Under the pieces are notes generated by a model. The model saw nothing but the letters and a program-made list of their open reading frames with translations, had not been told where the DNA came from and searched no databases. Shown in pieces: positions 3,521 to 41,585 of a stretch of DNA of 64,000 bases (its first letter is position 1; every line of letters starts with the position of its first letter). This stretch comes from Candidatus Gottesmanbacteria bacterium (lineage in GTDB: Bacteria > Patescibacteriota > Microgenomatia > UBA10105 > UBA927). The DNA is taken from the NCBI GenBank assembly GCA_963711735.1, contig CAVQFA010000003.1:284367-348366 (forward strand), given 5' to 3'. The position numbers and the translations under genes are program-made.

Positions 3521-3526
3521 TGAAAT

Positions 3527-3914
3527 TATGGCGAAGATTTTATTCATAGAAGATGATCCTTTGATAGTTAAGATTTACTCGACAAGGCTCAAGGCAGACG
3601 GACACGATGTGACATCAGCAGAAAACGGGGAAGAGGGTTTAAAAAAAGTGTATGAAGTGAAACCTGATATCATCGTTTTGGATGTTATGATGCCACGTAT
3701 CGACGGTTTCGGAGTATTGGAAAAGCTCCGTGCAGATCCGCTATTCAGCTCAACACCAATTCTCATGTATTCGAACCTTAATAACGAAGATGAAATTACA
3801 CGGGCAAAAGAGATGAAAGCAACAGAGTTTATTGTAAAAGCGAATCTTTCTCCCACGCAGATGGTTGATAAGATTAAACAATACGTACCGCACGACGCCC
3901 CGTCTCCTTCCTAA
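3527..3914 (+). CDS. single-domain response regulator (CheY-like receiver)
   Basis: MAKILFIEDDPLIVKIY...IIVLDVMMP carries the receiver-domain acidic pocket and phospho-Asp context. The ATG at 3527 lies right after the kinase stop, so the longer 3432 ORF is a frame artefact. Confidence 0.8.
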
Positions 3915-4014
3915 TAGACAAAACGGTTTAATCGCGGAGAAAAGATGCTACTTTCAAAAGAGAGTATGGTATACAATAAAATAAACCGGTTTTTGACGAC
4001 CCGGTACGTTTGAT

Positions 4015-6925: not shown

Positions 6926-7052
6926 TCTTGTAGTGCGGAATAATAAACGCGCAACCCGTACGTACTCATATTACTTTTTCTCTAGTACGAATATATAATG
7001 TGGTATACAATATCTTCATGTAACGCCGGTTTATTCCGGTGATTTTCATGTA

Positions 7053-20995: not shown

Positions 20996-23260
20996 TTACC
21001 GTATGATTACGGGTTTTTTGGCATCATGATTACAATCTAAACACCACATGGATAACTCATCGCGAAGTACATCATGATCCTGAATTTCAACATTTTCAGG
21101 AGCTGTTGTCTGTGTGGCAAGATCACCGGTTGTTTTATCTATAGGGACACTCATACGTAACTGTTCACGGGCTGTGGGAACTGTGCCTTTTATGAAGTAC
21201 TCATACCGTGTTGAACATCCCTTATCTCCTTCGCTATTAGGAGGAAGCAAACCGGTCGTGGTGCACACTTCGGCACCGACAATACCTTCGGGTTGTTTTG
21301 GCCAGATATCAGGTTGATTTTCAAGTACCCGCTTCATGAGCTTATTCCATATCGGAGCTGCTCCCGTTACTCCGGAAACAAGCGCCTGGTTCATGCGGGT
21401 GTTATTGTTGTTGCCTACCCAAACTGCGATGAGAAATTGCGGTGTATACCCGATCGTCCAATTATCCCGGTGTTCATCCGTTGTTCCGGTTTTAACCGAT
21501 ACCGCGTGTCCCGGGATAACAAGCGCTGAGTTTGTCCCGAACATGGCAGCGCGGGCGTTGTTATCCAGAAGTATGTGTGAAATGAGATACGCGGTTTCCG
21601 CGGAAAGAACCCTCGGTCCGGAGATAAGAATCTGTGAAGGTACGGACTTTTTCAGATTAGGATCTTTCTGTTCAAAGAGTATCTTTCCCTGGTTGTCCGT
21701 TACCTTTGTGATAGCTATCAGGTCTTTCCGTACTCCTGAATTGGCAAATACGGAAAATGCTGTTGCCATATCCGTCATCCTTACCTCTCCGCCGCCGAGA
21801 GTCAGAGAGAGTCCGTAGTTTTTGGGATCTTTGATAGTAGAAAGTCCGAACGCACTTGCCGATGCGACAAACCCTTCGACAGAATTTATCTTTAACATTT
21901 TTACCGCCGGAATGTTAAAAGAATTACCGAGTGCAAACCGAAGCTGCTGGGGTCCGTGAAATTGGAAATCATAGTTGTTCGGACAGTAGAGGGGTTGGTT
22001 GATGGATGCAAAACATGTCGGTACGTCCAGAAACATTGTTGCGGGTGTAACCCTTTTTTGCTCAATACCGATGCCGTAATTTATGGGTTTTATGGAAGAA
22101 CCGGGTTGCCTGAGAGCTGTGGTGACATTGAAACTGCCGGAGGGTGTGGCGAAATAATCCACACTTCCGACCATGGCGAGTATTTCACCAGTTGCCGGTT
22201 TGGTTATAAGTGCAGCGCCGTTTGATACGTCATAATGCTCTAAATCTTTAATTTCCGCCGCCACTGTTGCCTGTGCATAATCCTGGAGTGTAATATCCAG
22301 AGTTGTTGTGACATTGAGTCCGCCGCGTGCCACGAGTGTCTCGCCGAACTCTTCAACAAGTTTTTCTTTTACGTACATGATAAAATGCGGTGCCCTTATG
22401 TTTGTCTGTTTGGCATATACGAGTGCTTCCTTTTTTGCCTTTTCAGCTTCAGCTTGTGTTATATATCCGTCCTCGACCATACGACGTAAAACTTCCACTT
22501 GACGGTTTTTTGCCAATTCCGGATGGGCACCGAACGGGGAGTAATAAGTAGGAGCCTGAGGAAGACCGGCAAGAAGAGATGCTTCAGCAAGTGTCAGATC
22601 TTTAGCACGCTTGGCGAAATACTTTTCCGCTGCTGTTTCTATACCCCACGCAGTGCCGCCGTACGGAACCTGGTTGAGGTATAACTCAAGTATTTTATCC
22701 TTGGGATAGAGAAGTTCCACCCAAAAAGAAAGGACAATTTCACGGATTTTACGGACGACACTCCTTTGCGGTGTAAGGAGTGCGGTTTTTACTAACTGCT
22801 GTGTGATAGTTGACCCTCCCTGCAGACGTTTTCCCGTGATGGTTGCAACAACCGCCCGGAGCATTCCTCCGATAGGACTTACACCACCGTGCTTATAAAA
22901 ATTTTTATCTTCTATGGATATGGTAGCTTCGCGGACATAAAGCGGAATTTCTGAAAGCGTAACGGCTGTTCTGTTTTCCTCTACAAATATATCGTGGAGA
23001 AGTATACCGTTTCTGTCATATATTTTTGTAGCAAGAGGAACAGAATATGTTTCAAGTCCTTTTGGTGAAGGAAGGTCTTTGAAAATGAGAAGATATGACC
23101 CTATGATAAGTGACAGAGGCAGAAGCCAAAATGCCCATTTGATACGTTGACCGTGTACCCGGGGAATTGGTAACGCAAAACGGGAAACGAAGGATTTGAC
23201 ACCCTTCAGGGAGATTTTATGAAATCCTTTTTCAATCCTTTGTCGAAATGTAGACGTCAT
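20996..23260 (-). CDS. class A penicillin-binding protein (paralog)
   Basis: IEDKNFYKHGG, RQPGSSIKP and KTGTT are present, and the protein is collinear with the upstream PBP. Confidence 0.9.
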   Translation of the reverse strand: MTSTFRQRIEKGFHKISLKGVKSFVSRFALPIPRVHGQRIKWAFWLLPLSLIIGSYLLIFKDLPSPKGLETYSVPLATKIYDRNGILLHDIFVEENRTAVTLSEIPLYVREATISIEDKNFYKHGGVSPIGGMLRAVVATITGKRLQGGSTITQQLVKTALLTPQRSVVRKIREIVLSFWVELLYPKDKILELYLNQVPYGGTAWGIETAAEKYFAKRAKDLTLAEASLLAGLPQAPTYYSPFGAHPELAKNRQVEVLRRMVEDGYITQAEAEKAKKEALVYAKQTNIRAPHFIMYVKEKLVEEFGETLVARGGLNVTTTLDITLQDYAQATVAAEIKDLEHYDVSNGAALITKPATGEILAMVGSVDYFATPSGSFNVTTALRQPGSSIKPINYGIGIEQKRVTPATMFLDVPTCFASINQPLYCPNNYDFQFHGPQQLRFALGNSFNIPAVKMLKINSVEGFVASASAFGLSTIKDPKNYGLSLTLGGGEVRMTDMATAFSVFANSGVRKDLIAITKVTDNQGKILFEQKDPNLKKSVPSQILISGPRVLSAETAYLISHILLDNNARAAMFGTNSALVIPGHAVSVKTGTTDEHRDNWTIGYTPQFLIAVWVGNNNNTRMNQALVSGVTGAAPIWNKLMKRVLENQPDIWPKQPEGIVGAEVCTTTGLLPPNSEGDKGCSTRYEYFIKGTVPTAREQLRMSVPIDKTTGDLATQTTAPENVEIQDHDVLRDELSMWCLDCNHDAKKPVIIR

Positions 23261-25762: not shown

Positions 25763-26686
25763 ATGAGACGAAAGCTTGTTTTTCTGGTAATAATCGTAAT
25801 TTTTATCGTTGCCGGATTTTTTCTTTATCGGCTTATCCGCGGAACACCAGCCCGACTCGGAGTTCTCAAAGTTACCACTTCGCCCTCAACCACGATTTTT
25901 TTGGATAACCGTCATTTAGGACGGGTACCGTATGAAGACAAAGTACCGGAAGGAGAGTACACGGTTAAGTTGGTTCCTGAAACCGCAACAGAACCGGTTA
26001 TTTCCTGGCAGGGTAAGATAAAAATAGTCAGGAATCTGCTTACCTATATTAATGCGGACCTGGCTGATTCAGAATTTTCGTCATCAGTCGATATCCTGTG
26101 GCTTGAAAAAATCCCGTCCAAATCATCGGAGTTATCAGTAATAACAAATCCGGACGGGGCGACGGTATCCCTTGACGGGGATGTAAAAGGAGCAAGTCCT
26201 ATTGTTGTTGCGGACGTTGTACCCGGCGATCATACAGTGACAATCGTATCTCCCGGATTTCTTCCGAGAACCCTGAAAATCAAAACGACAAGCGGGTATA
26301 AATTACTGGCAAATATTAAACTCGCTCTTGCACCGGGCGGTACACAGATATCACCGACGCAAAGTGTAGCTTCACAATCAGCAACACCAACGGTTAAACC
26401 CGGTGCCCGCGTGAGTCCCCAGACGAGCCCCTCACCGACAGCTTCTGTTTCATCAACACCCAAGACTACAGCGGATCCTCCCAAACCGTTTGCACTCATA
26501 AAAGACACACCCACAGGATTTTTACGCGTACGGATGGAGCCAACTACTGCTGCCACGGAAGCCGCGAAGGTATATCCCGGTGATAAATTTACCATATTTG
26601 ATACAAAAAGCGGGTGGTATCAAATTGAATATGACGGTACGAATAAAGGGTGGATTTCCTCACAGTACGCTACGAAGGTTGAATAA
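25763..26686 (+). CDS. PEGA-domain protein with C-terminal SH3b domain
   Basis: TM anchor, two PEGA-like repeats (…PEGEYTVKL…, …PGDHTVTI…) and a C-terminal SH3b-like segment GDKFTIFDTKSGWYQIEYDG. Confidence 0.55.
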   Translation: MRRKLVFLVIIVIFIVAGFFLYRLIRGTPARLGVLKVTTSPSTTIFLDNRHLGRVPYEDKVPEGEYTVKLVPETATEPVISWQGKIKIVRNLLTYINADLADSEFSSSVDILWLEKIPSKSSELSVITNPDGATVSLDGDVKGASPIVVADVVPGDHTVTIVSPGFLPRTLKIKTTSGYKLLANIKLALAPGGTQISPTQSVASQSATPTVKPGARVSPQTSPSPTASVSSTPKTTADPPKPFALIKDTPTGFLRVRMEPTTAATEAAKVYPGDKFTIFDTKSGWYQIEYDGTNKGWISSQYATKVE

Positions 26687-26690
26687 TTCT

Positions 26691-27629
26691 TCATCCGCCT
26701 ATTCCTAAAATTACCAGAAGGACACTTGCTCCCCATAACATGACGGTGAGTATAAGAGGTGAATCGCTAGTCAGTACTTTTTCAGGAGATTCACCCTTTC
26801 CTTCATAAATAAGCTGCATATACCGCATAATTCCATACAGGACAAACGGTATAGTGATCATCATCCATTTTCTGTTGGTAAAATCATCAACAAATCCCGT
26901 GTATCCGCGAAACAGCATTCCTTCGCGGACAGGATGTTCCAGAAAGGTATAAAACGCATACGCGATAAATGTGGAATTTGCAAACATCGCCGTATAGGTA
27001 TCGAGAAGCTTTTCCGAGTAATGAGACAGAGTTTCGCGTGTCTGGCTCGGAAGGATACCTTTATATCCCTGAATAAGTGTAAGCTCTGACCGGCGTTTTC
27101 CGATTGCCAGAAACAATGAGAGAGAAAGTGCGGCAAGTGCGAGCCATACGGAAATATGTAAACCGGTTATAGCTTCTCCCGCGTATACTCTGATGATATA
27201 TCCGCCGGTGATTGCAAGAATATCAATAACACTGGTTTTTTTCAGAAGGAGTGAATACGTGTATTGGAGAACAACAAAACAGATTGACAGGAAAAAAAAT
27301 GATACGGATAACGTGTAACTTAATACCAGGCCTGCGACCATAAAAAGGAGTGATGCAAAGAGTGCAATCGGTATAGGAAGGGATCCGCTTGCGACAGGCC
27401 TAAAACGTTTAAAAGGATGTTTTCTGTCAGACGGAGCATCAAGAACATCATTGATAAGATAATTAGATGAAGCGAGGAAACAAAATACGATAAATCCGAC
27501 AGCGGTCGGCAAAAAATGTTCGGGTGAAAAGATCGTTCCTGTAAACAGGAGTGTAGAAAAAATCGCTACATTTTTCAGCCATTGTCTTGGTCTCGCGGTT
27601 TTGAAAATTGCGTAAAGAATTTTACCCAT
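26691..27629 (-). CDS. UbiA-family prenyltransferase, decaprenyl-phosphate phosphoribosyltransferase (DPPR synthase)-like
   Basis: ARPRQWLKN opening and NDVLDAPSDRKHPFKRFRPVASG (NDxxDxxxD...KRxRPxAxG). Confidence 0.7.
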   Translation of the reverse strand: MGKILYAIFKTARPRQWLKNVAIFSTLLFTGTIFSPEHFLPTAVGFIVFCFLASSNYLINDVLDAPSDRKHPFKRFRPVASGSLPIPIALFASLLFMVAGLVLSYTLSVSFFFLSICFVVLQYTYSLLLKKTSVIDILAITGGYIIRVYAGEAITGLHISVWLALAALSLSLFLAIGKRRSELTLIQGYKGILPSQTRETLSHYSEKLLDTYTAMFANSTFIAYAFYTFLEHPVREGMLFRGYTGFVDDFTNRKWMMITIPFVLYGIMRYMQLIYEGKGESPEKVLTSDSPLILTVMLWGASVLLVILGIGG

Positions 27630-28657
27630 ACAACAAATCCTCCAAATGCCACTGCTACCAATAATAATGCAAACACTTTCTGTTGGCTAGTGACCGTTAG
27701 GGCAATAATACCGAGAACGAGTGTAATGAACCAGTAAAAAACAGCAATTCTCCGTTTTCCCCACCCGATATCCAGAAGCATATGATGCAGGTGTCCGCGG
27801 TCAGCCTGTACCGGTGACTTGCCTTTTTGTACGCGTCTAAGAAGCGTATATACGGCATCGATCATCGGTATGCCTAAAACCAGCAGTGCCGTACCGACTT
27901 TAGCTGAGGATAAAATCCCGAGAACCGCAAGCATCAGACCGGCGAGTGTTTTTCCGCCGTATCCGGGCATAATTTTCTGCGGGAAAAAATTCCAGACAAG
28001 AAATCCCGCAAATGCGCCGGATACGATAAACGCGAGAACCGCGGTGTTTGCTACACTTGGATCCGTCGGGACAAACCGAAGTGATAAAAGTCCAAGCACA
28101 GCAGCAGCAATGGCTACAAAACCGGGCATCTGTCCGTCGACACCTGCTGACCAACCTATGATATTGATGGTCCATAATATCCAAATGAATGCAGCAATGT
28201 TTGAAAATACAATCAGTGAGTATGGGAGTATTTCTGCAAACGGAAGATGATACATATCAAGTCTGAGTACTCCGCCTGTGAGGGGATTTGTAATATACGG
28301 AATATTGACACCGGCATAAATGATACAACCGGCAGCAATAGCGTTTGTTGCCAGACGGATATACGGGCTCACGTCCCGTTTATCATCAAAAAGACCGACA
28401 ATGACAAGGAGGAGTCCGGCGCCGAGAATAATACATAATTTAGCAGAAATTCCGAGGAACGTATACGAAATAATACCTATTCCGATAATAAGAGCGAGTC
28501 CTCCAGCGCGGGCGATAATCCCGGTATGCGTGTGTGCAGGGTGATATCTTTTATGAGGATCATCAACGAGGCCGTATATAAAAGCTATTTTAATAACCAG
28601 AGGCGTAACAACACAGGTAAGAATAAATGATGATACGAATGCTAAAGCAATTATCAT
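27575..28657 (-). CDS. glycosyltransferase family 4 polyprenyl-phosphate sugar-1-phosphate transferase (WecA/MraY-like)
   Basis: LVDDPHKRYHPAHTHTG plus the DD/D motifs and a 10-11 TM topology. Overlaps the downstream UbiA-like gene by 55 nt. Confidence 0.8.
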   Translation of the reverse strand: MIIALAFVSSFILTCVVTPLVIKIAFIYGLVDDPHKRYHPAHTHTGIIARAGGLALIIGIGIISYTFLGISAKLCIILGAGLLLVIVGLFDDKRDVSPYIRLATNAIAAGCIIYAGVNIPYITNPLTGGVLRLDMYHLPFAEILPYSLIVFSNIAAFIWILWTINIIGWSAGVDGQMPGFVAIAAAVLGLLSLRFVPTDPSVANTAVLAFIVSGAFAGFLVWNFFPQKIMPGYGGKTLAGLMLAVLGILSSAKVGTALLVLGIPMIDAVYTLLRRVQKGKSPVQADRGHLHHMLLDIGWGKRRIAVFYWFITLVLGIIALTVTSQQKVFALLLVAVAFGGFVVWVKFFTQFSKPRDQDNG

Positions 28658-28660
28658 ACA

Positions 28661-29050
28661 TTATGTTATAAGCGTTATGATTTTCGCGACAATAATGAGC
28701 GAGAGTGTAGAGGTAAAAGCGGAAACGAGAAATGCTGTTTGCATAAAAACGCGGTAACGGGGCTCCCATTTCATACCAATTGCCGTATAGAATATATGCC
28801 AGATAATATTTACCGCAGGTAACAGAAAAAGATATCCGGGTGATGCGAGCCGTTCCGTTCCCCATGGTTTGATATACCAGAAGGGTACAGCCGGAGGAAG
28901 ATTCCGCCAATACAACGCAATAAGAAGAAGAGAAGCGAGCGTCGTGATTGCCACACACGATGTGGCTACGGAAAATATCCAATTATGTGAAAGGGTCTGA
29001 ATGTTAAAACGGAGTATCCTCCAAACATTCGGAACGTCGTTGGTGAGCAT
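28661..29050 (-). CDS. small 3-4 TM membrane protein
   Basis: Hydrophobic profile; packed tightly between the GT4 and GT-C genes. Confidence 0.35.
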   Translation of the reverse strand: MLTNDVPNVWRILRFNIQTLSHNWIFSVATSCVAITTLASLLLIALYWRNLPPAVPFWYIKPWGTERLASPGYLFLLPAVNIIWHIFYTAIGMKWEPRYRVFMQTAFLVSAFTSTLSLIIVAKIITLIT

Positions 29051-29051
29051 A

Positions 29052-30422
29052 TTAGTTTTTTTTCACGGACACGTTTACGGTACTCCCGGTATTGAGGTAT
29101 GTTTTATACCGGATAGTAATTTGTCCTTTTGAGTCTACAATTATTGCACGGGATGGGTATGTCGGTATGTCATACGCAAAATATTTAGCGGAAAAAACCG
29201 CATCTCCTATGTACCATGGGAATTGAGCGCCTGTCGGATTATAGAGGTATACACCGTTTTTATTCTTGGCATAATAGAGTGTTTCAAAAAAATGCAGGGA
29301 ATTGGAAGCATAGATAACGTCGTGACTCTGCCTCATACCGTTTGCTTCCTGGATAACGTCTCTCCACGGGAATTTTGCATGCTTAGGAGGATACCAGATA
29401 TTGAAAGCGATGCATGATAGGATGAAAATAGCTGCAACAGAGAGTTGTATACGGGTATTGCGAATTGTTGATAATGCATACGCAATCAGAAATACTTCCG
29501 ATATCGTAACAAAAATAAGATATCTGTTTACAAACATGGGTTTAAATAATGAAATTCCGATAATGATACTTAACGGAATGAAAACATTAAGAAGGAAATA
29601 TCCCACTATATGCCTGTTTGATTTACGTATCCATGCAACAGCAAATACTATAAGTAAAAATAATGACAGATATGCGGTATACATCCAGCCATACCAGGGA
29701 GTACCTTCGTAACTGATAAACATATTGCCAAGGACTGATTTAACCAGATGTATATCAACGGGAAAGTACCATGAGTCTTTTAATTTCCCGGACAAAACAA
29801 TAATCCGCATAAGCCACGGAAGCATTCCTACAAACGTAAGTGTCATCGCCCGGACAAATGTATTTGCAGTAAGACGGGATAATTGAGAAAAAGATACTTT
29901 ACGATGTTTTAATACACCCAGGATGAACCAATGGATACTTTGTACAAACGGAATGAAAATAAAAAACGCGTGCGTATAGAATCCGCAAATATTAGCAAAA
30001 ATTAATAAACGGTATCGCCGTGATATATAGCTGTATATGGAGAGGAGTGCAAAAAAGATATACCAACCGTACGTCCGAACCTCAAAGGCATAGTACAGTA
30101 TCATGGGATTGAAGATGTACAGGATAGGAAGAATAACAGATATTGCTGATCGTTTAAACAGTGTTTCTGACCATTTTATAAGAAGAATAGCGGAGAGGAC
30201 TACACCTGTAAGAGACAGGGATCGCGCGGCAATTTCACCGGTACCGAACAATCTGATCCATAAATGGAGAAATATATAGTACAACGGCGGTTCAAATGAC
30301 AACTTCGTGAAGTATTCGATAATCGGACGCTGGGCTACCATGATGGAAAAAACTTCATCACGCCATAAACTTTGGACAAGATACAGAAGTGGTGTGTTGG
30401 ATAAAAGCCAATTGATTAGCAT
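29052..30422 (-). CDS. GT-C fold membrane glycosyltransferase (ArnT/PMT, GT39/GT83-like)
   Basis: N-terminal DE-containing first loop (LWRDEVFS) and a 12-TM profile. Confidence 0.55.
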   Translation of the reverse strand: MLINWLLSNTPLLYLVQSLWRDEVFSIMVAQRPIIEYFTKLSFEPPLYYIFLHLWIRLFGTGEIAARSLSLTGVVLSAILLIKWSETLFKRSAISVILPILYIFNPMILYYAFEVRTYGWYIFFALLSIYSYISRRYRLLIFANICGFYTHAFFIFIPFVQSIHWFILGVLKHRKVSFSQLSRLTANTFVRAMTLTFVGMLPWLMRIIVLSGKLKDSWYFPVDIHLVKSVLGNMFISYEGTPWYGWMYTAYLSLFLLIVFAVAWIRKSNRHIVGYFLLNVFIPLSIIIGISLFKPMFVNRYLIFVTISEVFLIAYALSTIRNTRIQLSVAAIFILSCIAFNIWYPPKHAKFPWRDVIQEANGMRQSHDVIYASNSLHFFETLYYAKNKNGVYLYNPTGAQFPWYIGDAVFSAKYFAYDIPTYPSRAIIVDSKGQITIRYKTYLNTGSTVNVSVKKN

Positions 30423-30509
30423 ACGTATGAACCAAATACCGTTAAGAAACGATAATCACCGGACGCACGGTATTGTATCATCTATAAGACTATGAACCGT
30501 ATATGTGTA

Positions 30510-32015
30510 TTATACCTTTTCGGTAACCCGGTATTCCAGCCTTTTTCCCAACATCAATCGTGTGTGAGCATCAAGACCCGGAAGTGCGGAGAGGAAAAAA
30601 GATACGATCGGAATCGTCAGCCATTGTAAATAAAGGAAGGGGAGTCTCCATGCTGCAAATTCTTTCGGGCGGGGAGGTTTTGTCTTTATATCGATGATAA
30701 CTACAACAAGTATGAAAATGAACGACAATGTCATAATACCGCTTGAAAGTTGAGCGAGATTATGACCAAGTGCAGTTCTCGCAAAAACCGGATTGACAAG
30801 AGGCGGGATTATGCTTCCGACGGTCAGGATAAACCAGTTTGCAGGCCAAAAAATATGATGTTCAAGAAGTTGAACAAGTCTCCGTATGCGGTCAAAAATT
30901 GGGATTTCCGGATGAAGAATCATTCCCCGGATGACATACGGTATATCGGAAACACCCCATGCCCAGCGTTTGGATTGTTCATATTGGTTCACAACAGTCC
31001 GGAAAAATCCATGTGATTCCGCTGCGTCAACGAGTACGGGCAGAAATATACCTCGGGTTTGTACGTTTCCTCCTTTAGAAAAATATACTTTGAAAAACAA
31101 ATGATAATCTTCCGGTATGACATCCGGATCCCAGAATCCCGCAGAGGATACCGTGCTGAATGATAACGAGTACGTGGAAAAGTTGATAAATTTGCTGCCC
31201 TGTGTCAAAAGGGACAAATTCCAAATGCTTCCCATCGTATTAAGTACCCGGCTCGGGAGAGGAACACGCCAGATATTGGAATAAAAGAGAATTGCACCCT
31301 GGTAGAAGTGATACTGTCTGTCCGGGTCAGTCAGAAATTCATACGTAAGTGCGGATATATATTTAGGATGAAGGAGAGCATCGGCATCGCATGATGTAAT
31401 AGTAGTCCACTCGGGATTTATGCCCCACCCGGCAAGGTTGGAGGAGACTTCTTTCGCGGCGCATGCCATGTTGGATGATTTACCTGCTACTTCACCTGCA
31501 ACAAGTGTATGTTTTGTTACGAGAAAGTGACCGAACTTTTTCTGAAATTGTTTTGTGAGAAGCAAGGCTTTTGCGTCTGCATCGGGATCTTTAGCCTCCT
31601 GGGCAAGAACAATAATAATGCGGTTTTTGGGATACTCCTGATATGTCAGGTTTACAAGCGTTTTTTGTAGGATGTGCAAAGGTTCCCTGTATTCTGGAAT
31701 GACAATAATATGATATGTATCCTTAAAATGAGGAAGTGACTTCGCTTTTGACAGCCAATCAACTTTTGTATGCGCATTCATGGTTATAAACGATTTCACC
31801 GCATGGAACGCAAGTGTGAAGGACTTATAAAACCAGTAGATGTCAAAGGTAATAATAATGTAGGCAACAATAGCAGGATGCCAGAACGAAAGCCATAAAG
31901 GCATCGTGATGAGAAGCCATGATGTTGCAGGTATTGCTATTTCAAACAACCGCTTTGTGGCATTAGGGTAGAGAAGGATAAGTTTTTTCATGCTTTGGAT
32001 GTTATCAGATACCAA
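30510..32015 (-). CDS. membrane-bound GT2 glycosyltransferase, processive (cellulose-synthase-like) type
   Basis: DxD (TSCDADALL) and QxxRW-like motif QSKRWAWG, flanked by TM helices. Confidence 0.55.
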   Translation of the reverse strand: MVSDNIQSMKKLILLYPNATKRLFEIAIPATSWLLITMPLWLSFWHPAIVAYIIITFDIYWFYKSFTLAFHAVKSFITMNAHTKVDWLSKAKSLPHFKDTYHIIVIPEYREPLHILQKTLVNLTYQEYPKNRIIIVLAQEAKDPDADAKALLLTKQFQKKFGHFLVTKHTLVAGEVAGKSSNMACAAKEVSSNLAGWGINPEWTTITSCDADALLHPKYISALTYEFLTDPDRQYHFYQGAILFYSNIWRVPLPSRVLNTMGSIWNLSLLTQGSKFINFSTYSLSFSTVSSAGFWDPDVIPEDYHLFFKVYFSKGGNVQTRGIFLPVLVDAAESHGFFRTVVNQYEQSKRWAWGVSDIPYVIRGMILHPEIPIFDRIRRLVQLLEHHIFWPANWFILTVGSIIPPLVNPVFARTALGHNLAQLSSGIMTLSFIFILVVVIIDIKTKPPRPKEFAAWRLPFLYLQWLTIPIVSFFLSALPGLDAHTRLMLGKRLEYRVTEKV

Positions 32016-32076
32016 AAGTAAGTCATGTACTACGGGAGATTCTAAACAACGCTATTAATTATATCATTCAGACGCC

Positions 32077-32778
32077 TTATTCGCGAATATCAGGGAAGCC
32101 GACAACGTTCGCCTTCCTCCAGATGAAGTAGTTGAAAAATACTTTTGGGATGCGAAGGAGAAGCCCTATACCTTCATTACCGCGGCGACCAGATGCCCGG
32201 ACATATTCGGATTGTGTAAAAACAATTTTCCCTACAGTCATGAGTCTTCGTGCTATCTCTATGTCTTCCGCAATTTTGAAATGCTCCGGAAATCCTCCGA
32301 CTGCAATTGCTTTTTCTCTCCAAAACGCCATATTTTGACCCGTCGCCATAGGCATCCGGAATAAAAAAAACAACAAACTGTTAAAGAACGGTTGGAAGAT
32401 ATTTACATAGATTTTATACCACCATGGTCCGTCAGGAACGCGGAATCCGCCGAAATACCCGACAACGCCGGGTTTCGTCAAATAGCGCTCAATTCGTTCA
32501 AGCCAATCGGGTGGCGGGGTAGCGTCCGCGTCAGTAAACGCGATAATATCGCCTGCTGCTTTCTGAAGGCCTTTCTGTCTGCTGTACCCGATAGTCAGTT
32601 TCGGAGCGTTTAATACACTCGCTCCTTCTTTTTCTGCAATTTCTTTCGTTTTGTCTGTTGATGATGCGTTGACGACAATAATTTCGTCGGGCTTACGGGT
32701 TTGAATATTCAGAGCCTGAAGTGTGAGGAGAATGAGTTTTTCTTCGTTGTACGCGGGAATAACAACAGATATTTTCAT
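32077..32778 (-). CDS. GT2 glycosyltransferase (dolichyl/polyprenyl-phosphate sugar synthase-like)
   Basis: VVIPAYNEE and FTDADATPPPDW (DxD) are present. Confidence 0.8.
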   Translation of the reverse strand: MKISVVIPAYNEEKLILLTLQALNIQTRKPDEIIVVNASSTDKTKEIAEKEGASVLNAPKLTIGYSRQKGLQKAAGDIIAFTDADATPPPDWLERIERYLTKPGVVGYFGGFRVPDGPWWYKIYVNIFQPFFNSLLFFLFRMPMATGQNMAFWREKAIAVGGFPEHFKIAEDIEIARRLMTVGKIVFTQSEYVRASGRRGNEGIGLLLRIPKVFFNYFIWRKANVVGFPDIRE

Positions 32779-32792
32779 ATATATTCATCATA

Positions 32793-33593
32793 CTATGACC
32801 CGATTGTGAAATGGAAGAGGCGTTCAGCATTTTTTGTTGTCTGGTTCCGGATTTCCTCATTGGACAGATTCATATAGTGTGCAATTGTATCCGCGATGAT
32901 CGGCAGATATTGTGGTTCGTTCCTTTTTCCCCGGTGCGGAGAAGGCGTGAGAAGCGGAGAATCGGTTTCCAAAAGAAGGTGTGTAATCGGAACGGAGGAA
33001 ACGATCTCCCGGATATGTTTGGCATACGTGATATTTCCGTCTATACCGAAAAAAAGTTTCCTTTTTACGGCATCACGGATATCCGCCTTTCCTCCCGAAA
33101 AACAATGTATAACACCGCGCGGCAAGGATTCAAGGGTGTCCAAAACGGAAAACATGTCATCAAATGCTTCCCTGCAGTGAATGATGACGGGAAGATCATG
33201 CAAAAGAGCAAGGCGGAGATGTTCTTCAAAAAGTCTTTTCTGTCTGTCTTTTTTTCCGGTTGCACGTTCACCTTTGAATGGGTAATAATCCAAGCCGCAT
33301 TCCCCGATTGCCGTTATTGATGACCTGTTTTTTTTAAGAATTGATACGACCGAATCAAACGATGGGTTGTGATCGGTTTCATGAGGATGAATTCCTACAG
33401 CCGCATAAATGCCCGGTGTGTTTCGGGCAAGCGTAATTGCCGAACCGCTTGTTTTTTCATCAACTCCCGGAACAAGCATATATGTAACGCCCGACTTTTT
33501 TGCTTTTCGGATAACATCTTTACGGTCTGCATCAAATGCGGAGAAATTTAAATGGCAATGTGTATCAATTAGCATGGGTATATATGCGTACAA
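32793..33593 (-). CDS. tatD: TatD-family metal-dependent hydrolase
   Basis: LIDTHCHLNF and later His/Asp/Glu motifs. Confidence 0.85.
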   Translation of the reverse strand: MYAYIPMLIDTHCHLNFSAFDADRKDVIRKAKKSGVTYMLVPGVDEKTSGSAITLARNTPGIYAAVGIHPHETDHNPSFDSVVSILKKNRSSITAIGECGLDYYPFKGERATGKKDRQKRLFEEHLRLALLHDLPVIIHCREAFDDMFSVLDTLESLPRGVIHCFSGGKADIRDAVKRKLFFGIDGNITYAKHIREIVSSVPITHLLLETDSPLLTPSPHRGKRNEPQYLPIIADTIAHYMNLSNEEIRNQTTKNAERLFHFTIGS

Positions 33594-33594
33594 T

Positions 33595-35046
33595 TTACTT
33601 CAAGCGCGGAAAGAGCGGCTTTTGGCTAACGATTTTCTGTTTGGAATATTGAGCGAGAATTACGCTTCCTGCGGAGGGAAGGAACGGAAGTAAAAGCGTT
33701 GCGATTTCCTGTATGGATGGTATGAGAGCATTTATAGTCTGAGTTTTTTCTTTTCCCGTTTGCTTCCACGGTTCACGACTGTCAATGAATTTATCCTCCG
33801 TTTTTATAAGAGACCATACGTACGCAAGCGCTTCATCAAAGCGGAATGATTCAAAAGCCAAACGGTAGATATTATGTTTTTCGGTTGTTGTCAAATCAGG
33901 AAAAGAAAGAGGTTTCGGGATTACAACATTATCTGTCTGGCATGCAAGTTTCGCAACCCTGCTTATTAGGTTTCCGAGGCCGTTTGCGAGGTCTGCATTA
34001 TAGAGTTCCTTAAATCGGGATTCGGAAAAGTCGCCGTCTGCAAAAGGGGGAATTTCCCTCAGGAAATAGTACCGCAATGGGTCTGCGCCGTATTTTATGA
34101 TAAGGTTAACAGGATCGATGACATTTCCCAGAGTTTTGCTCATCTTCTGTCCGTTGACTGTGAAGTATCCGTGTATAAAGATAGACTTCGGTAACTTAAG
34201 ATTCGCGGACAGGAGAAATGCAATCCAGTAAACTGCATGAAAACGTGATATTCCTTTGCCGATGACATGGACATCAGCCGGCCACCATTTTTCATACAAT
34301 TTTTGATCCCATCCGAATCCTATACCGGATTGATAGATATTGAGCGCGTCAAACCAAACATATATTTTTTGTGTCGGATCATCCGGCACGGGCACTCCCC
34401 AATTTCTCGCGCGCTCATTAGACCGGGATATTGAAATATCCTGAAGCGATTGTTTGAGGAATGATAAAACCTCGTTTTTACGGAATGTCGGCACAATACG
34501 TACGGTATCCGAAGTTATAAGATTGATAAGAGTTTTCTGGTATTTCGATAAACGGAAGAAATAATTCGTTTCTGAAACAACATCAAGCTTTTTGCCGGGA
34601 TGCTCGTAACATTCTCCGTTTTCATTCAGTTCCGTTTTACTGTAAAATGTTTCGCACCCGACACAATACAGACCTTCATATTCTTTCTTATAAATATCTC
34701 CCCGCGCTTCGCATAATCTCCAGAGTTTTTGGCTTGATTTGAAGTGTTTGTTCTCATCACTTCCGCGCTGAAAAAAGTCAAATTGTACATTGAGCTTGAC
34801 TGCCAGTTTTTCAAACAGCGCCGTATTTTCATTGATAAATTCACGGATATCTTTACCTGCCTGTTGGGCAGCCTGTACGTTTTTCAGCGCATTTTCATCG
34901 CCTCCCGAAAGGAGCGCGCAATTATCTCCGACTAAACGATGATACCGAGCAATAGCATCCGCCTGTACAAATTCGAGCGCGTGCCCTATATGTGGTTTAG
35001 CGTTAACGTACGGAATGGCTGTGGTTATATAAAATTTTCGTGTCAT
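33595..35046 (-). CDS. metG: methionyl-tRNA synthetase (short form)
   Basis: HIGH (PHIGHA), KMSKT, and the CVGC...CYEHPG zinc knuckle. The ATG at 35046 is preferred over the upstream TTG that the ORF track used. Confidence 0.9.
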   Translation of the reverse strand: MTRKFYITTAIPYVNAKPHIGHALEFVQADAIARYHRLVGDNCALLSGGDENALKNVQAAQQAGKDIREFINENTALFEKLAVKLNVQFDFFQRGSDENKHFKSSQKLWRLCEARGDIYKKEYEGLYCVGCETFYSKTELNENGECYEHPGKKLDVVSETNYFFRLSKYQKTLINLITSDTVRIVPTFRKNEVLSFLKQSLQDISISRSNERARNWGVPVPDDPTQKIYVWFDALNIYQSGIGFGWDQKLYEKWWPADVHVIGKGISRFHAVYWIAFLLSANLKLPKSIFIHGYFTVNGQKMSKTLGNVIDPVNLIIKYGADPLRYYFLREIPPFADGDFSESRFKELYNADLANGLGNLISRVAKLACQTDNVVIPKPLSFPDLTTTEKHNIYRLAFESFRFDEALAYVWSLIKTEDKFIDSREPWKQTGKEKTQTINALIPSIQEIATLLLPFLPSAGSVILAQYSKQKIVSQKPLFPRLK

Positions 35047-35078
35047 GCGGATAATTGTACCGTAAGCGTGTAGCAAGC

Positions 35079-35405
35079 TCAATCTATAGAGCGTTTGGAT
35101 AAATATGCATCAGATGTTACAACGAGGATGAGTAGTAAAATACTGTAGAGTGCTTCCCGCAGATAGAGAAACCGTAAGACAAGATAAATGATTCCTCCGC
35201 ATGTCATAAGAACCGCCCTTAGTACGTTGTTTGTGAGGTACATGACGGAGGAAAAGATGGCACATCCGATGAGAGTAATACAAATACCAATGTATAAATA
35301 TAGTTGCGGCGGATACGTATTGACAAACCAGCTGATAATACAAGCGAAAATAATTGCAGTAAACAACCATATTATATTATGTCGGGAAGTATTGAATCTC
35401 GTCAT
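35079..35405 (-). CDS. small membrane protein, hypothetical
   Basis: 3 TM. An internal Met start is chosen to avoid overlap with rmuC. Confidence 0.3.
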   Translation of the reverse strand: MTRFNTSRHNIIWLFTAIIFACIISWFVNTYPPQLYLYIGICITLIGCAIFSSVMYLTNNVLRAVLMTCGGIIYLVLRFLYLREALYSILLLILVVTSDAYLSKRSID

Positions 35406-36485: not shown

Positions 36486-38310
36486 ATGACATCTTCAATT
36501 GTCCGAAAAAAATATATAGATTTTTTTAAAGCCAGAGGGCATGCGGAGATTCCGTCAGCTCCTTTAGTGCCTGAAAATGACCCATCAACACTTTTTAACT
36601 CAAGCGGCATGCAACCTTTAATTCCATATCTTCTCGGAGAACCGCATCCGTCAGGGAAAAGACTTGTCAATTCGCAGAAATCATTCAGGGCGCAGGATAT
36701 CGATGAAGTCGGTGATAACAGGCACACGACGTTTTTTGAAATGCTCGGAAATTGGTCTTTGGGGGATTACTTTAAAAAAGAACAACTTACCGTGGTTATT
36801 TGAATTCTTAACAAAAGAACTTAGTCTTGATCCTAAACGGTTATACGTAACCGTATTTGAAGGGAATGATTCCGTGCCGAAAGATGATTCCTCAATTTCC
36901 ATATGGAAAGATATTTATTCAAATGTAAACATTGATGCTGAAGTTGGAGAACGTATATTCCTTTATCCGGCGAAAAACAACTGGTGGAGCAGGTCCGGGG
37001 AACCGGAAAAAATGCCCGCCGGTGAACCTGGCGGACCGGACAGTGAAGTGTTTTACGATTTCGGAGCGGAGTTAAAAATTCACGAAAAATCTAAGTATAA
37101 AAATGAGAGATGCCATCCTAACTGTGAATGCGGTCGGTTTATGGAAATTGCTAACTCGGTATTTATGCAGTATCAGAAACAATCCGACGGTAGTCTCAAA
37201 GAACTCTCACAGAAAAACGTTGATTTTGGCGGGGGCCTGGAGCGTCTGACAGCAGCAACCGATAATACTCCTGATGTATTTCAAACTGATTTGTATACGT
37301 CGTTGACAGGCATACTCGAGAATGTTTCGAAGCAGAAATTCGGAGAAAAACAGGAAGAAACGAAGGCGATGAGGATTATTGCTGACCACATAAAAGGATC
37401 AGTCATGATGATGAGTGACGGAGTTACACCATCCAATAAACAGCAGGGATATATATTGCGGAGGCTCATACGACGCGCTCTTCTATATGGGAGAAACATA
37501 GGACTTACATCGGATTGGAAATATATAGGGGATTTGGTTGAACCGGTTGCGGTTATTTATAAAGACGCGTACCCCGGCGTATCGGCGAAAGTATCCGCGA
37601 TCAAACACACTATAGAAGAGGAAGCGCTCCGTTTCGGGAAAACGCTCGAGAAAGGGTTGAAAGAAATCGATAAGATCGATACATTGGACGGATCCAATGC
37701 GTTTAAGCTGTACGAAACGTACGGTTTCCCGTGGGAAATGACAGAAGAGTTGGCACGGAAGAGAGGTCAATTGCCGGACAGGAAGCAGTTTGAATCGGAG
37801 TTTCGTAAACACCGGGAGCTTTCAAGGACCGCGGCAGCCGGAATGTTTAAAGGCGGACTGCAGGATCATAGCTTTGATGTGACAAAACTACATACCGCAA
37901 CACATCTTCTCCATCAGGCGCTTCGTATGACGCTTGGGGATCATGTTTCACAGAAAGGTAGCAATATTACGGCAGAAAGACTCCGGTTTGATTTTTCCCA
38001 TTCGTTGAAAATGACGGATGAACAAATCCGAAAGGTAGAAGATATTGTTAACGACCAGATCAAGAAAGATTTACAGGTAACATATACAACAACAACGTAT
38101 AAGGAAGCCATAAAGGATGGAGCATTGGCTTTTTTCGGAGAGCGGTATCCGGAAAAAGTAAAGGTATATTCAGTAGGTACATTCTCCAAAGAAATATGCG
38201 GAGGACCGCATGTAGAGCGTACCGGGAAAATCGGTCAATTTAATATTATAAAAGAAGAGTCTGCTGGTGCCGGAATCCGAAGAATCTACGCATCTGTACA
38301 CACGAAATGA
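36486..38310 (+). CDS. alaS: alanyl-tRNA synthetase (catalytic + editing domains, no C-Ala domain), interrupted by apparent +1 frameshift at ~36783-36790
   Basis: Frame 0 (36486-36803) encodes the AlaRS N-terminus ...[17 protein letters not shown]. Frame +1 (from ~36787) continues [12 protein letters not shown]...; the editing-site HxxxH/CGGPHV motif is near the end. The two frames join if one nucleotide of the AACAAC repeat is removed. Confidence 0.75.
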
Positions 38311-40842: not shown

Positions 40843-40847
40843 CAAAT

Positions 40848-41585
40848 ATGCCCATATACCGTTACGTTAAAAAATACCCGCGTAAAAAGTTTCAGCCTCC
40901 GCGGTTTGCTTCATATCTGCTTATATGTATGGGGATCGTGATGCTTTTATGGGTTGCATGGCCGATAGTAAGTTTTAAGTTTATTTCTGTTATCGGTTTC
41001 TCGCGGACGATAACCCCCTTAGGTTCGCAAAACGGTCAAATTTCTCCGATCGGAGACGGAATTGTCCATGCTGCAAGTCAGGATCAGACGAACTATGCTG
41101 ATCCGAACACCTGGTTTCCCGGCAAACCGCAAAAAAAGATCGTTACTCCAATAAATACATACTCGTTATCTATTCCGAAGCTGCACATTGAAAACGCAAC
41201 CGTTGTTATTGCCGGCGATTCACTCGATAAAAGTCTCATCCACTACGGGGGAACTGCAATACCAGGGGAATACGGTAACACCGTCATTTTTGGGCATTCT
41301 ACGCTACCGGCTCTCTATGATCCAAAAAGCTATAAAACAATATTTTCCTTATTACCAACACTCGATGCGGCGAGCGCAACCCGTCCGGGAGATGACATAT
41401 TTATCACATATGACGAAATTACGTACAGATACGAGGTTATCGATATTGTTGTTACTAAACCGCAGGATTTATCTCCGTTAGAGCAAACATTTGATGATTC
41501 GTACGTGACTCTTGTTACGTGTGTACCTCCTGGTACCTACTGGGAGAGGATGTATGTAAAAGCCAGAATTATTCCATTACAATGA
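40848..41585 (+). CDS. sortase family transpeptidase
   Basis: N-terminal TM, His motif VIFGHS, catalytic TLVTC, and a downstream Arg. Confidence 0.75.
   Translation: MPIYRYVKKYPRKKFQPPRFASYLLICMGIVMLLWVAWPIVSFKFISVIGFSRTITPLGSQNGQISPIGDGIVHAASQDQTNYADPNTWFPGKPQKKIVTPINTYSLSIPKLHIENATVVIAGDSLDKSLIHYGGTAIPGEYGNTVIFGHSTLPALYDPKSYKTIFSLLPTLDAASATRPGDDIFITYDEITYRYEVIDIVVTKPQDLSPLEQTFDDSYVTLVTCVPPGTYWERMYVKARIIPLQ

Follow-up and report, generated by a model that had tools for sequence, protein, structure and literature searches.

Gene content and order of the cluster

Positions 26691-32778 of the window, the whole 64-kb stretch of Gottesmanbacteria DNA analyzed here, hold six co-oriented ORFs, all called on the minus strand (Table 1). 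Five of these had been described by the first-pass annotation and are real and correctly placed; the sixth, encoding a 129-aa membrane protein, had been overlooked. The GT-C, small-protein and GT4 ORFs are spaced by 1-3 nt, the GT4 and UbiA genes overlap by 55 nt, and as judged from the sequence the six ORFs probably form a single operon. The ORF of the large GT2 reaches back to a TTG at 32015, yet its start is most likely the ATG at 31991, giving the same length as in homologues.

Table 1. Coordinates of the cluster genes and their immediate neighbours in the window.
Feature	Position	Strand	Basis
Membrane-anchored PEGA + SH3 surface protein	25763..26686	+	Pfam PEGA, SH3_3
UbiA-family PPPRS/DPPRS-like polyprenyl-phosphate 5-phosphoribosyltransferase, 312 aa	26691..27629	-	Pfam UbiA PF01040, NCBIfam NF008978
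PNPT-like GT4, WecA/MraY superfamily, 360 aa	27575..28657	-	Pfam Glycos_transf_4, 71.9 bits
Small membrane protein, 129 aa, three hydrophobic segments	28661..29050	-	Conserved motif, synteny
GT-C fold glycosyltransferase, 456 aa, polytopic	29052..30422	-	AF2 model + Foldseek
Membrane-integrated synthase-like GT2, 493 aa	30510..31991	-	Pfam Glyco_trans_2_3, motifs
Accessory soluble GT2, 233 aa	32077..32778	-	Pfam Glycos_transf_2, 100.9 bits
TatD-family hydrolase	32793..33593	-	Pfam TatD_DNase, 253.8 bits
MetRS	33595-35082

The core order (GT2 synthase, GT-C where present, small protein, GT4, UbiA) is kept across Microgenomates, being shared by Gottesman-, Levy-, Beckwith-, Collier-, Davies- and Blackburnbacteria, and homologues of the UbiA enzyme across this group are 45-76% identical to it. 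A relative of the UbiA gene occurs in more than 582 species representatives. The GT4/UbiA overlap is kept in 77 of 81 loci, and the UbiA and large GT2 proteins are conserved to the same level as MetRS. However, synteny in related genomes extends over everything between RmuC and the PEGA protein, and conserved order alone is weak evidence of shared function. The estimated gap between the TatD and large GT2 genes is 30 nt or less in 38 of 69 loci. MetRS and TatD genes are frequently adjacent in other bacteria, and the hydrolase probably pairs with MetRS rather than belonging to the glycan pathway. In almost every locus the PEGA-SH3 gene converges on UbiA. Its product has an S/T/P-rich linker, and 41 of 80 homologues carry one with at least 50% S/T/P over 40 aa, making this surface protein a candidate glycosylation target.

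Elsewhere in the window, two class A PBPs were confirmed (18351-20927 and 20996-23260), together with BacA/UppP, type IV pilus genes and a 503-aa polytopic ORF (15937-17448), which is real but unrelated to both GT-C profiles. The PBPs and the 503-aa protein, previously associated with the cluster, are all present, but a functional link of the cluster to the PBPs, or to the 503-aa protein about 10 kb away, is unsupported.

Properties of the encoded enzymes

The UbiA homologue scores 216.1 bits against the NCBIfam model of decaprenyl-phosphate phosphoribosyltransferase (NF008978, cut-off 207) and 152-216 bits on three DPPRS models, as opposed to 49 bits or less on any other UbiA clade (quinone, haem, chlorophyll, GGGP). 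Its closest solved homologue is the DPPRS of M. tuberculosis, Rv3806c (PDB 8j8j), matched over its full length (E 1.5e-32). The NDxxDxxxD...KRFRP motif reported earlier aligns in the same register as N73-D81 and K87-P91 of Rv3806c, to which it is identical. Thirteen residues of Rv3806c with mutagenesis- or structure-backed contacts to Mg2+, ribose, 5'-phosphate, pyrophosphate or decaprenyl-P were scored, and 12 of them are retained both here and across 85 homologues (R22, K28, Y70, N73, D77, K87, R90, Q135, Y138, K143, Y157 and K191), the sole difference being K208. The retained set includes phosphoribose (PRPP)-specific residues that are absent from ordinary UbiA enzymes. Clade scores and PRPP-specific residues together bear out the original placement of the protein in the DPPRS/PPPRS clade rather than among quinone, haem or chlorophyll prenyltransferases; it has the sequence features expected of a genuine PRPP:polyprenyl-phosphate phosphoribosyltransferase.

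The overlapping GT4 gene had been assigned to a WecA/MraY-like initiating transferase. Membership in the Glycos_transf_4 family holds, and the protein retains DD, N165, D174, D267, D286 and the HLHH motif and matches the MraY structure 4j72 (E 6e-4). It scores 93 bits on the WecA model TIGR02380, far under the cut-off of 326. The position equivalent to D265 of AaMraY, the Mg2+-proximal catalytic Asp, is Y in 76 and F in 5 of 81 homologues. Because this residue is replaced, an initiating role was asserted too confidently, and the predicted enzyme may differ from initiating transferases of the conventional kind. Directly upstream of the GT4 gene, and abutting it in 77 of 84 related loci, lies the gene for the small membrane protein, among the most conserved parts of the cluster. 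It has no match in Pfam or NCBIfam, but the motif LPPxxPxFxxxPWGxxRL is common to 76 distinct homologues. Its family comprises 329 cluster representatives, nearly all of them stand-alone proteins of 100-145 aa; in one relative (P0467 / L085) it is fused N-terminally to GT4. These features suggest that the small protein is probably an accessory subunit of GT4.

The GT-C protein has no Pfam match by its own sequence, although some of its homologues match Pfam PMT_2 and PMT. Its AF2 model (pLDDT 88, pTM 0.87) matched only GT-C-fold membrane proteins in Foldseek, namely lipid-linked-donor transferases and three GPI-transamidase subunits; matches include ALG12, ArnT (TMq 0.58), OST/PglB, PMT and AftA, and the fold is nearer to PMT, ALG12 and ArnT than to Aft/Emb enzymes. 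The ArnT/PMT-like character claimed for this protein is thus recovered at the level of structure prediction and fold search. The residues W20-R21-D22-E23 of the first loop are invariant. Other Microgenomates carry a distant GT-C relative (PMT_2, YGDEG motif) in this slot, and one or the other subfamily holds it in 66 related loci, which argues for selection on function at that position. Also, about 12 loci have no GT-C in the operon but still possess the large GT2, the small protein, GT4 and UbiA, indicating that the tightest partner of UbiA is GT4 and not GT-C.

In the large GT2, motifs DAD202-204, ED294-295 and QSKRW339-343 are kept in 72 homologues and the D motif is also present, in agreement with the CESA-like, QxxRW-type synthase proposed at first. 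The AF2 model is of moderate confidence (pLDDT 69.5), its top Foldseek matches are PcManGT, hyaluronan synthases and BcsA, and JGI labels its homologues 'cellulose synthase/PNAG synthase-like'. The 233-aa GT2, in contrast, does not live up to its description as DPM-like: it has no hydrophobic segment, its PDB matches are generic GT2 enzymes, and dolichol-P-mannose synthase (29.7 bits) falls below the others. Just 7 related loci carry it in the space that separates TatD from the large GT2, and it is a sporadic accessory outside the conserved core.

Candidate pathway and alternative readings

The family and fold assignments, the conserved active sites and the operon architecture with its conservation are shown here, and they are best accounted for by a variant form of the three-component pentofuranose systems (PPPRS, flippase and GT-C) already characterized (Kelly et al., PNAS 2024, PMC11127046), combined with a primed, synthase-made backbone. 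We give about an even chance to the cluster being such an envelope glycoconjugate operon, made up of a lipid-linked ribofuranose module and a backbone module. In the former, the UbiA enzyme would move 5-phosphoribosyl from PRPP onto polyprenyl phosphate at the cytoplasmic face, the carrier probably being undecaprenyl phosphate given the BacA/UppP gene in the window. The product, polyprenyl-P-ribofuranose(-5-P), would be flipped, and GT-C would then glycosylate an acceptor outside the membrane, either a wall polymer or a surface protein. In the latter, GT4, by conventional catalysis or otherwise, would cooperate with the small three-segment protein in priming an acceptor linked to polyprenyl-(P)P, and the synthase-like GT2 would polymerise and export the backbone glycan, as in WecA-primed synthase-dependent O-antigen pathways; the 233-aa GT2 may be an optional adaptor or decorating enzyme. 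These donor-acceptor relationships are inferred, as are the acceptor itself and the identity of the pentose. Neither a 5'-phosphatase (HAD/PRP or PAP2) nor a flippase (MATE, GtrA, SMR) could be recognised in the operon or elsewhere in the window, so two expected components are missing or unrecognised.

A polyprenyl-phosphate-pentose pathway, as first suggested, is consistent with a DPPRS-type UbiA accompanied by GT-C, GT4 and GT2; its Corynebacterineae-like arabinose is not supported. On that account, DprE1/DprE2-like enzymes encoded elsewhere would epimerise the lipid-linked ribose to polyprenyl-P-arabinofuranose, and GT-C would act as the arabinofuranosyltransferase in making a wall polymer similar to arabinogalactan. 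The mycobacterial DPPRS as closest solved relative and the echo of WecA, GlfT and Aft in GT4, GT2 and GT-C speak for it, but the FAD oxidase/SDR pair was not found in the window, nor did a crude motif screen of the flanking +/-10 kb find it recurring among 84 related loci (L001-L084), while all characterised or predicted Araf systems keep DprE1/E2 in the locus (PMC11127046). Since the published rule for three-component systems reads absence of the epimerase as ribofuranose (PMC11127046), the sugar is more likely lipid-linked ribofuranose than arabinose, and with a GT-C fold nearer to PMT, ALG12 and ArnT, the joint arabinan proposal appears improbable. The genes could also be mere neighbours in a generally syntenic region, with GT4 priming an unrelated glycan, GT2 making an exopolysaccharide on its own and the lipid-linked pentose from UbiA used elsewhere. 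RmuC, MetRS, TatD and PEGA-SH3 are just as syntenic, and GT-C is relocated or missing in some loci. This is nevertheless improbable considering the widespread GT4/UbiA overlap, the 1-15 nt spacing of GT-C, small protein and GT4, the two GT-C subfamilies in one slot, and the five core products, all membrane glycan-assembly proteins.

Somewhat less unlikely is that GT-C uses the lipid-linked pentose to O-glycosylate Ser/Thr-rich linkers, such as that of the PEGA-SH3 protein, or pilins. TfpW-dependent pilin arabinosylation in Pseudomonas aeruginosa offers a precedent, a PPPRS orthologue has been proposed to act in pilin glycosylation (PMC11127046), and the window contains type IV pilus genes. A Pmt-like Asp-Glu pair occurs in loop 1 of both GT-C subfamilies, PMT-type Pfam models match some homologues, and the convergent PEGA-SH3 gene is syntenic. 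However, fold likeness does not define the acceptor, and ArnT and ALG12 score nearly as well; S/T/P linkers are common on surface proteins, with a strong one absent in about half of the PEGA-SH3 homologues; and the conserved synthase-like GT2 and PNPT-like GT4 are left unexplained.

Relation to known systems

Polysaccharide assembly by WbbE/WbbF of Salmonella O:54 is synthase-dependent and WecA-primed. The Gottesmanbacteria cluster likewise joins a PNPT-family gene and a membrane-integrated GT2 in one probable operon, but in its PNPT the Mg2+-proximal Asp is missing, and a small protein is dedicated to this enzyme as a probable partner. With BcsA, hyaluronan synthase and PcManGT the GT2 shares D, DxD, ED, QxxRW and a synthase-like fold, without a PilZ/c-di-GMP domain or a BcsB-like partner. 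Hexose systems such as GtrA/GtrB/Gtr(type) and CsbB/GtcA/YfhO also follow this logic, co-encoding a GT-C with a small membrane protein and the synthase of a lipid-phosphate-sugar. Here, however, a UbiA-type PRTase takes the place of the GtrB-like GT2 as donor synthase, and the small protein has three rather than four hydrophobic segments, no GtrA Pfam match, and a linkage (once a fusion) to the PNPT and not to the donor synthase.

The mycobacterial decaprenyl-phospho-arabinose pathway employs Rv3806c, Rv3807c, DprE1/DprE2, Rv3789 and Aft/Emb GT-C enzymes, with galactan made by WecA/GlfT. Its logic of PNPT primer, GT2 polymerase and GT-C with lipid-linked pentose is the same, and the UbiA enzyme is a full-length Rv3806c homologue with nearly all functional residues kept. 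DprE1/E2, the PAP2 phosphatase and the GtrA-like Rv3789 are not visible in the window, the GT2 is of membrane synthase rather than GlfT type, GT-C has none of the large periplasmic domains seen in Emb/Aft and the lipid is probably C55, not C50.

In the Citrobacter youngae O1/O2 system, formed by ORF15 (PPPRS), ORF14 (MATE flippase) and ORF12 (GT-C/GT136) (Kelly et al., PNAS 2024, PMC11127046), a UbiA-family PRPP-dependent polyprenyl-phosphate phosphoribosyltransferase gene likewise lies beside a GT-C gene, without a DprE-type epimerase and with ribofuranose predicted; the N-D-x-x-D-x-x-x-D catalytic loop and the R/E loop are shared. The Gottesmanbacteria cluster differs in that a HAD phosphoribose-phosphatase domain and a flippase of the MATE, SMR or GtrA type are both missing, in a PMT/ArnT-like GT-C that is not GT136 and lacks a carbohydrate-binding module, in the overlap of its PPPRS gene with a PNPT-like GT4 gene, and in its host, a Gram-positive-type CPR bacterium presumably without LPS. 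These comparisons suggest that the cluster encodes a modified version of the pathway previously described in tuberculosis bacteria and in Citrobacter.

Organization and conservation of the gene cluster

The genes between positions 26691 and 32778 are all encoded on the minus strand, in agreement with the co-orientation proposed in the first-pass annotation, but they number six rather than the five counted there, the gene for a small membrane protein having been overlooked (see Table). The true start of the large GT2 is probably the ATG at 31991, since its homologues are 493 aa long. Only 1–3 nt separate the genes for the polytopic protein, the small membrane protein and the PNPT-like GT4, and the GT4 and UbiA genes overlap by 55 nt. 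Promoter and terminator scans gave the same counts as shuffled sequence and do not define a transcription unit, and neither Rfam nor tRNA scanning of the window recovered anything relevant.

Table. Features of the putative glycan cluster, its flanks and other genes of the window
Feature	Coordinates	Strand	Size and remarks
Small GT2	32778..32077	minus	233 aa
Large GT2	32015..30510	minus	501 aa as longest ORF
Polytopic protein (GT-C)	30422..29052	minus	456 aa
Small membrane protein	29050..28661	minus	129 aa
GT4	28657..27575	minus	360 aa
UbiA-family protein	27629..26691	minus	312 aa
TatD-family hydrolase	33593..32793	minus	upstream of cluster
MetRS	35082..33595	minus	upstream of TatD
PEGA and SH3 membrane-anchored protein	25763..26686	plus	downstream, convergent with UbiA gene
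Polytopic membrane protein	15937-17448	plus	503 aa
Alanyl-tRNA synthetase ORF	36664-38310	plus	548 aa; catalytic core and tRNA_SAD
Weakly Baseplate_J-like protein, with the sortase that follows	38386-41585	plus	818 aa; E 2.6e-5
Nucleoside/AMP-phosphorylase-like protein	41519-42865	plus	Glycos_trans_3N, Glycos_transf_3, PYNP_C
PGA_cap (CapA-like) protein	55990-57126	plus	

The names that databases give to the nearest homologues assign the organism to Candidatus Gottesmanbacteria (Microgenomates, Patescibacteria/CPR). The remainder of the window agrees with that assignment, with genes for type IV pili, a sortase, two class A PBPs and BacA as well as an rpoBC/EF-G/EF-Tu block. The 818-aa protein is immediately followed by a sortase, and the two may form a sortase-anchored surface structure. 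The alanyl-tRNA synthetase ORF is shorter than the usual bacterial enzyme.

Relatives of the UbiA gene were sought in one genome per GTDB species, yielding at least 582, and the best 80 of these were examined as loci. All 80 belong to Microgenomates (Gottesman-, Levy-, Beckwith-, Collier-, Davies- and Blackburnbacteria). In these and in four metagenomic loci the gene order is (RmuC)-MetRS-TatD-large GT2-[GT-C]-small protein-GT4-UbiA; the PEGA-SH3 gene is oriented convergently to this series. The overlap between the GT4 and UbiA genes recurs in 77/81 loci, measuring 55 nt in 38 and 20 nt in 29. Within Gottesmanbacteria, identities of UbiA (63-70%) and of the large GT2 (61-71%) equal or exceed those of MetRS (59-66%). 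Many of the operon-bearing MAG records of species representatives (L005-L008, L010, L012-L015 and others) go under the title 'uncultured Pseudomonadales bacterium' or 'uncultured Gammaproteobacteria bacterium'; these titles look wrong, gene content and synteny being clearly those of Gottesmanbacteria or Levybacteria.

In 38/69 loci the estimated gap between the end of the TatD gene and the large GT2 is at most 30 nt, and in some the two slightly overlap; TatD is the only hydrolase that the unit encodes. MetRS and TatD form a common housekeeping pair, and TatD may simply belong with MetRS. In view of this pairing its candidacy as the missing 5'-phosphatase was set aside as having a low probability, despite the tight spacing.

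The UbiA homologue and the predicted pentose

Several lines of evidence assign the UbiA homologue to the DPPRS/PPPRS enzymes, that is, the PRPP:polyprenyl-phosphate 5-phosphoribosyltransferases (EC 2.4.2.45). Besides the general family model (66.7 bits on Pfam PF01040, whose cut-off is 34.2), it passes the NCBIfam equivalog for decaprenyl-phosphate phosphoribosyltransferase, NF008978, with 216.1 bits (cut-off 207), while staying below the cut-offs of the sister models NF008977 (212.5 vs 234) and NF008976 (152.5 vs 474). On every UbiA clade other than the phosphoribosyltransferases (haem O synthase, GGGP synthase, ubiquinone, chlorophyll and others) it scores 49 bits or less, which places it apart from the quinone and haem prenyltransferases, menaquinone and protoheme enzymes included.

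Its best solved relative is the M. tuberculosis DPPRS, Rv3806c (8j8j), a trimer-forming enzyme with which it aligns from end to end at an E value of 1.5e-32. In Rv3806c, N73 and D77 are Mg2+ ligands, N73 and Q135 bind the ribose, K28, Y70 and Y157 the 5'-phosphate, R22, K87, R90, Y138, K143 and K208 the pyrophosphate, and K28, Y157 and K191 decaprenyl phosphate (PMC10994848). Twelve of these 13 ligand residues are identical in the UbiA homologue (R13, K19, Y57, N60, D64, K74, R77, Q122, Y125, K130, Y144 and K178) and are at least 80% conserved among 85 UbiA homologues, the sole mismatch being K208, which aligns to E199. Since the phosphoribose-binding residues are absent from ordinary UbiA enzymes (PMC10994848), their conservation is a real functional signature. 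The DPPRS-like assignment made in the first-pass annotation is therefore borne out, and on these sequence grounds phosphoribosyltransferase activity is a prediction that we hold with high confidence. The annotation itself is not new, as PGAP and JGI already name homologues decaprenyl-phosphate phosphoribosyltransferase.

The identity of the pentose is a separate matter. The nearest framework described so far is the three-component pentofuranose glycosylation system, in which polyprenyl-P-ribofuranose is synthesized from PRPP by a PPPRS and exported by a flippase, and the pentose is then added outside the membrane by a GT-C enzyme; whether ribofuranose, xylofuranose or arabinofuranose is used is set by the epimerases in the locus (PMC11127046). 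Among window ORFs of at least 150 aa there is no DprE1/DprE2 (FAD oxidase/SDR pair) or other epimerase, no HAD or PAP2 phosphatase and no MATE/GtrA/SMR transporter, and none of the operon proteins matches MATE, SMR or GtrA. The UbiA homologue itself, at 312 aa, carries no extra domain such as a fused HAD PRP. A regular-expression screen for SDR, PAP2, HAD and FAD-oxidase proteins within 10 kb on either side of loci L001-L084 gave scattered hits, none of them recurrent, the method being crude and the negative a soft one. Because no epimerase was seen in the window and none recurred near these loci, ribofuranose is predicted in place of the arabinose that had been read into the cluster at first. 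The nucleoside/AMP-phosphorylase-like protein of the window is possibly relevant to pentose-phosphate supply.

Glycosyltransferases and the putative small partner protein

The 456-aa polytopic protein matches neither Pfam nor NCBIfam nor any PDB sequence, and PDB sequence and profile searches with both this protein and the large GT2 gave no significant match, leaving fold comparison as the informative approach. Its AlphaFold2 model, built from an alignment of 34 homologues, is confident (pLDDT 88, pTM 0.87), and Foldseek retrieved with it only GT-C-fold membrane proteins, namely ALG12, ArnT (TMq 0.58), OST/PglB, PMT and AftA; the W20-R21-D22-E23 stretch of its first loop is invariant among homologues. 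Model and fold matches together confirm the GT-C identity suggested earlier. Across loci this slot is occupied by the Gottesmanbacteria type (type 1) in 24 and by a distantly related type 2 (hhalign probability 88.6%) in 42, the latter with Pfam PMT_2 and a YGDEG motif; in about 12 loci the GT-C gene is missing from the operon or has moved nearby. In one locus, L026, an Acyl_transf_3 membrane acyltransferase (394 aa, 6311-7495) takes the GT-C slot, which hints at O-acylation of the polymer instead of, or besides, pentosylation. The 503-aa polytopic membrane protein was considered as a second GT-C enzyme and rejected: it lies about 10 kb away, has no Pfam or GT-C HMM match and is dissimilar to both GT-C profiles.

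The large GT2 (Pfam PF13632, Glyco_trans_2_3) has the full motif set of a processive-type enzyme, D, DxD, ED and QxxRW, upholding the initial reading of its QSKRW motif. DAD202-204, ED294-295 and QSKRW339-343 are kept in 72 homologues, with Q..RW at 95% or more. The AF2 model is moderately confident (pLDDT 69.5), with predicted N- and C-terminal helices and a C-terminal part below pLDDT 50, and its best Foldseek matches are the membrane GT2 enzymes PcManGT, hyaluronan synthases and BcsA (TMq 0.48-0.51 to PcManGT/hyaluronan synthase). The small GT2, in turn, is a generic soluble GT2 found in only 7 loci, and its designation as a DPM-like (dolichol/polyprenol-P-mannose) synthase receives no support.

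The GT4 matches Pfam PF00953 (Glycos_transf_4, 71.9 bits) and is nearer to WecA than to MraY, yet its score on the WecA model TIGR02380 (93.1 bits) falls far under the cut-off of 326. It retains the DD pair, N165, D174 and the WecA-like P..D..RR..SP..D..HLHH region; D91 and D92 occur in 81/81 homologues, as do H289, H291 and H292. According to sequence alignment only, Y233 occupies the position of AaMraY D265 and is Y in 76/81 homologues, F in 5/81 and never D, and the first Asp of the N..N..DGxDG motif (BsMraY D174) is replaced by K, A or S. AaMraY D265, equivalent to BsMraY D231, is the Mg2+-proximal catalytic Asp (PMC5039524). The earlier description as a WecA/MraY-like initiating transferase fits the family and the motif but is too confident given the score under the WecA cut-off and the replaced Mg2+-proximal Asp.

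Directly upstream of the GT4 in 77/84 loci lies the small membrane protein, which has three hydrophobic segments and a conserved LPPxxPxFxxxPWGxxRL motif and belongs to no known family. Of the 329 cluster representatives retrieved by a library-wide phmmer search, almost every one is a stand-alone protein of 100-145 aa. In the fusion protein P0467 (475 aa, encoded at locus L085) it is joined to a GT4 sharing 36% identity with that of the window; the gene follows a 494-aa gene, and a 312-aa UbiA gene lies 1.3 kb downstream. Between the fusion gene and the UbiA gene (2998-4173), a toxin-antitoxin-like cassette of HEPN plus nucleotidyltransferase and an ORF of 140 aa, inserted on the opposite strand, disrupt the otherwise near-universal GT4/UbiA overlap. 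This Rosetta-stone fusion and the invariant adjacency point to a putative partner of the PNPT-like GT4 rather than a lipid-sugar flippase. A role as a GtrA/SMR-type flippase is unlikely, considering the presence of three and not four hydrophobic segments, the lack of a Pfam match and the single GT4 fusion.

Proposed pathway, alternatives and comparison with known systems

In the model that we favor, the UbiA homologue would make lipid-linked ribose(-5-P) from PRPP, the GT-C enzyme would use this lipid-linked sugar, predicted to be ribofuranose, and a primed, processively made backbone would come from the PNPT-like GT4 and its putative partner together with the synthase-like GT2. WecA-primed synthase-dependent polymers resemble the proposed backbone route. 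We regard this composite model as having roughly even prospects. The PEGA-SH3 protein, whose gene runs convergently to that of UbiA in nearly all related loci, has a Ser/Thr/Pro-rich linker (62% S/T/P over 40 aa) and might be a target of glycosylation or a partner that binds the wall. Protein O-glycosylation of such S/T/P-rich surface proteins, for instance PEGA-SH3 itself, is an alternative that fits the PMT-like nature of the GT-C enzyme and the composition of the linker; it is rather unlikely as a separate explanation, and it overlaps the composite model, since it changes the acceptor only. An arabinan-type pathway would call for DprE genes unlinked to the cluster and appears quite improbable, as does the notion that these genes are mere neighbors without shared function.

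The composite model is least at ease with the absence of a phosphatase and a flippase, with the replaced Asp of the GT4 and with a GT4-UbiA pair that is tighter than that of UbiA and GT-C, and these features leave room for less conventional chemistry. The tightest operon unit consists of the GT4, its dedicated small protein and the PPPRS (overlap in 77/81, fusion in one lineage). Conceivably, these three could form a complex in which the GT4 might place a sugar-1-phosphate on the free 5-phosphate of polyprenyl-P-ribose-5-P and not on polyprenyl phosphate, generating an undescribed lipid-linked primer on which the synthase-like GT2 would then polymerize. Transfer onto the ribose 5-phosphate would account for the lack of both a 5'-phosphatase and a separate flippase. 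That such a complex gives rise to a wall polymer anchored through ribose phosphate, present throughout Microgenomates and probably essential, is nevertheless a long shot.

To our knowledge, experiments have so far established nothing about the glycopolymers at the cell surface in the Candidate Phyla Radiation (CPR), whose bacteria live attached to host cells and cannot as yet be grown alone. The operon offers a concrete, testable handle on core CPR envelope structure, with PRPP-derived ribofuranose on a polyprenyl carrier as the predicted signature. Every fold in it is known, and the novelty resides in their combination and architecture and not in a new principle. What is new, as read from the genes, is a class-wide operon in which the predicted PPPRS gene overlaps that of a PNPT subfamily whose catalytic Asp is substituted and whose dedicated putative small partner is fused to it in one case, the further members being the synthase-like GT2 and GT-C enzymes that are interchangeable; this PNPT subfamily and its partner are flagged as an enzyme of interest. 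The operon is a good lead into the CPR cell envelope rather than a categorical surprise. The literature library that was searched yielded no relevant paper connecting DPPRS, decaprenyl or UbiA, or the pathway, with CPR/Patescibacteria, and these phyla are unmentioned in the description of the three-component system by Kelly et al. (PMC11127046). Compared with that system, a dedicated flippase gene was not found in the operon, whereas the GT-C enzyme is encoded together with the PPPRS here too; the operon carries the three-component pentofuranose logic over to a very different lineage, in which the genes are arranged in another way.
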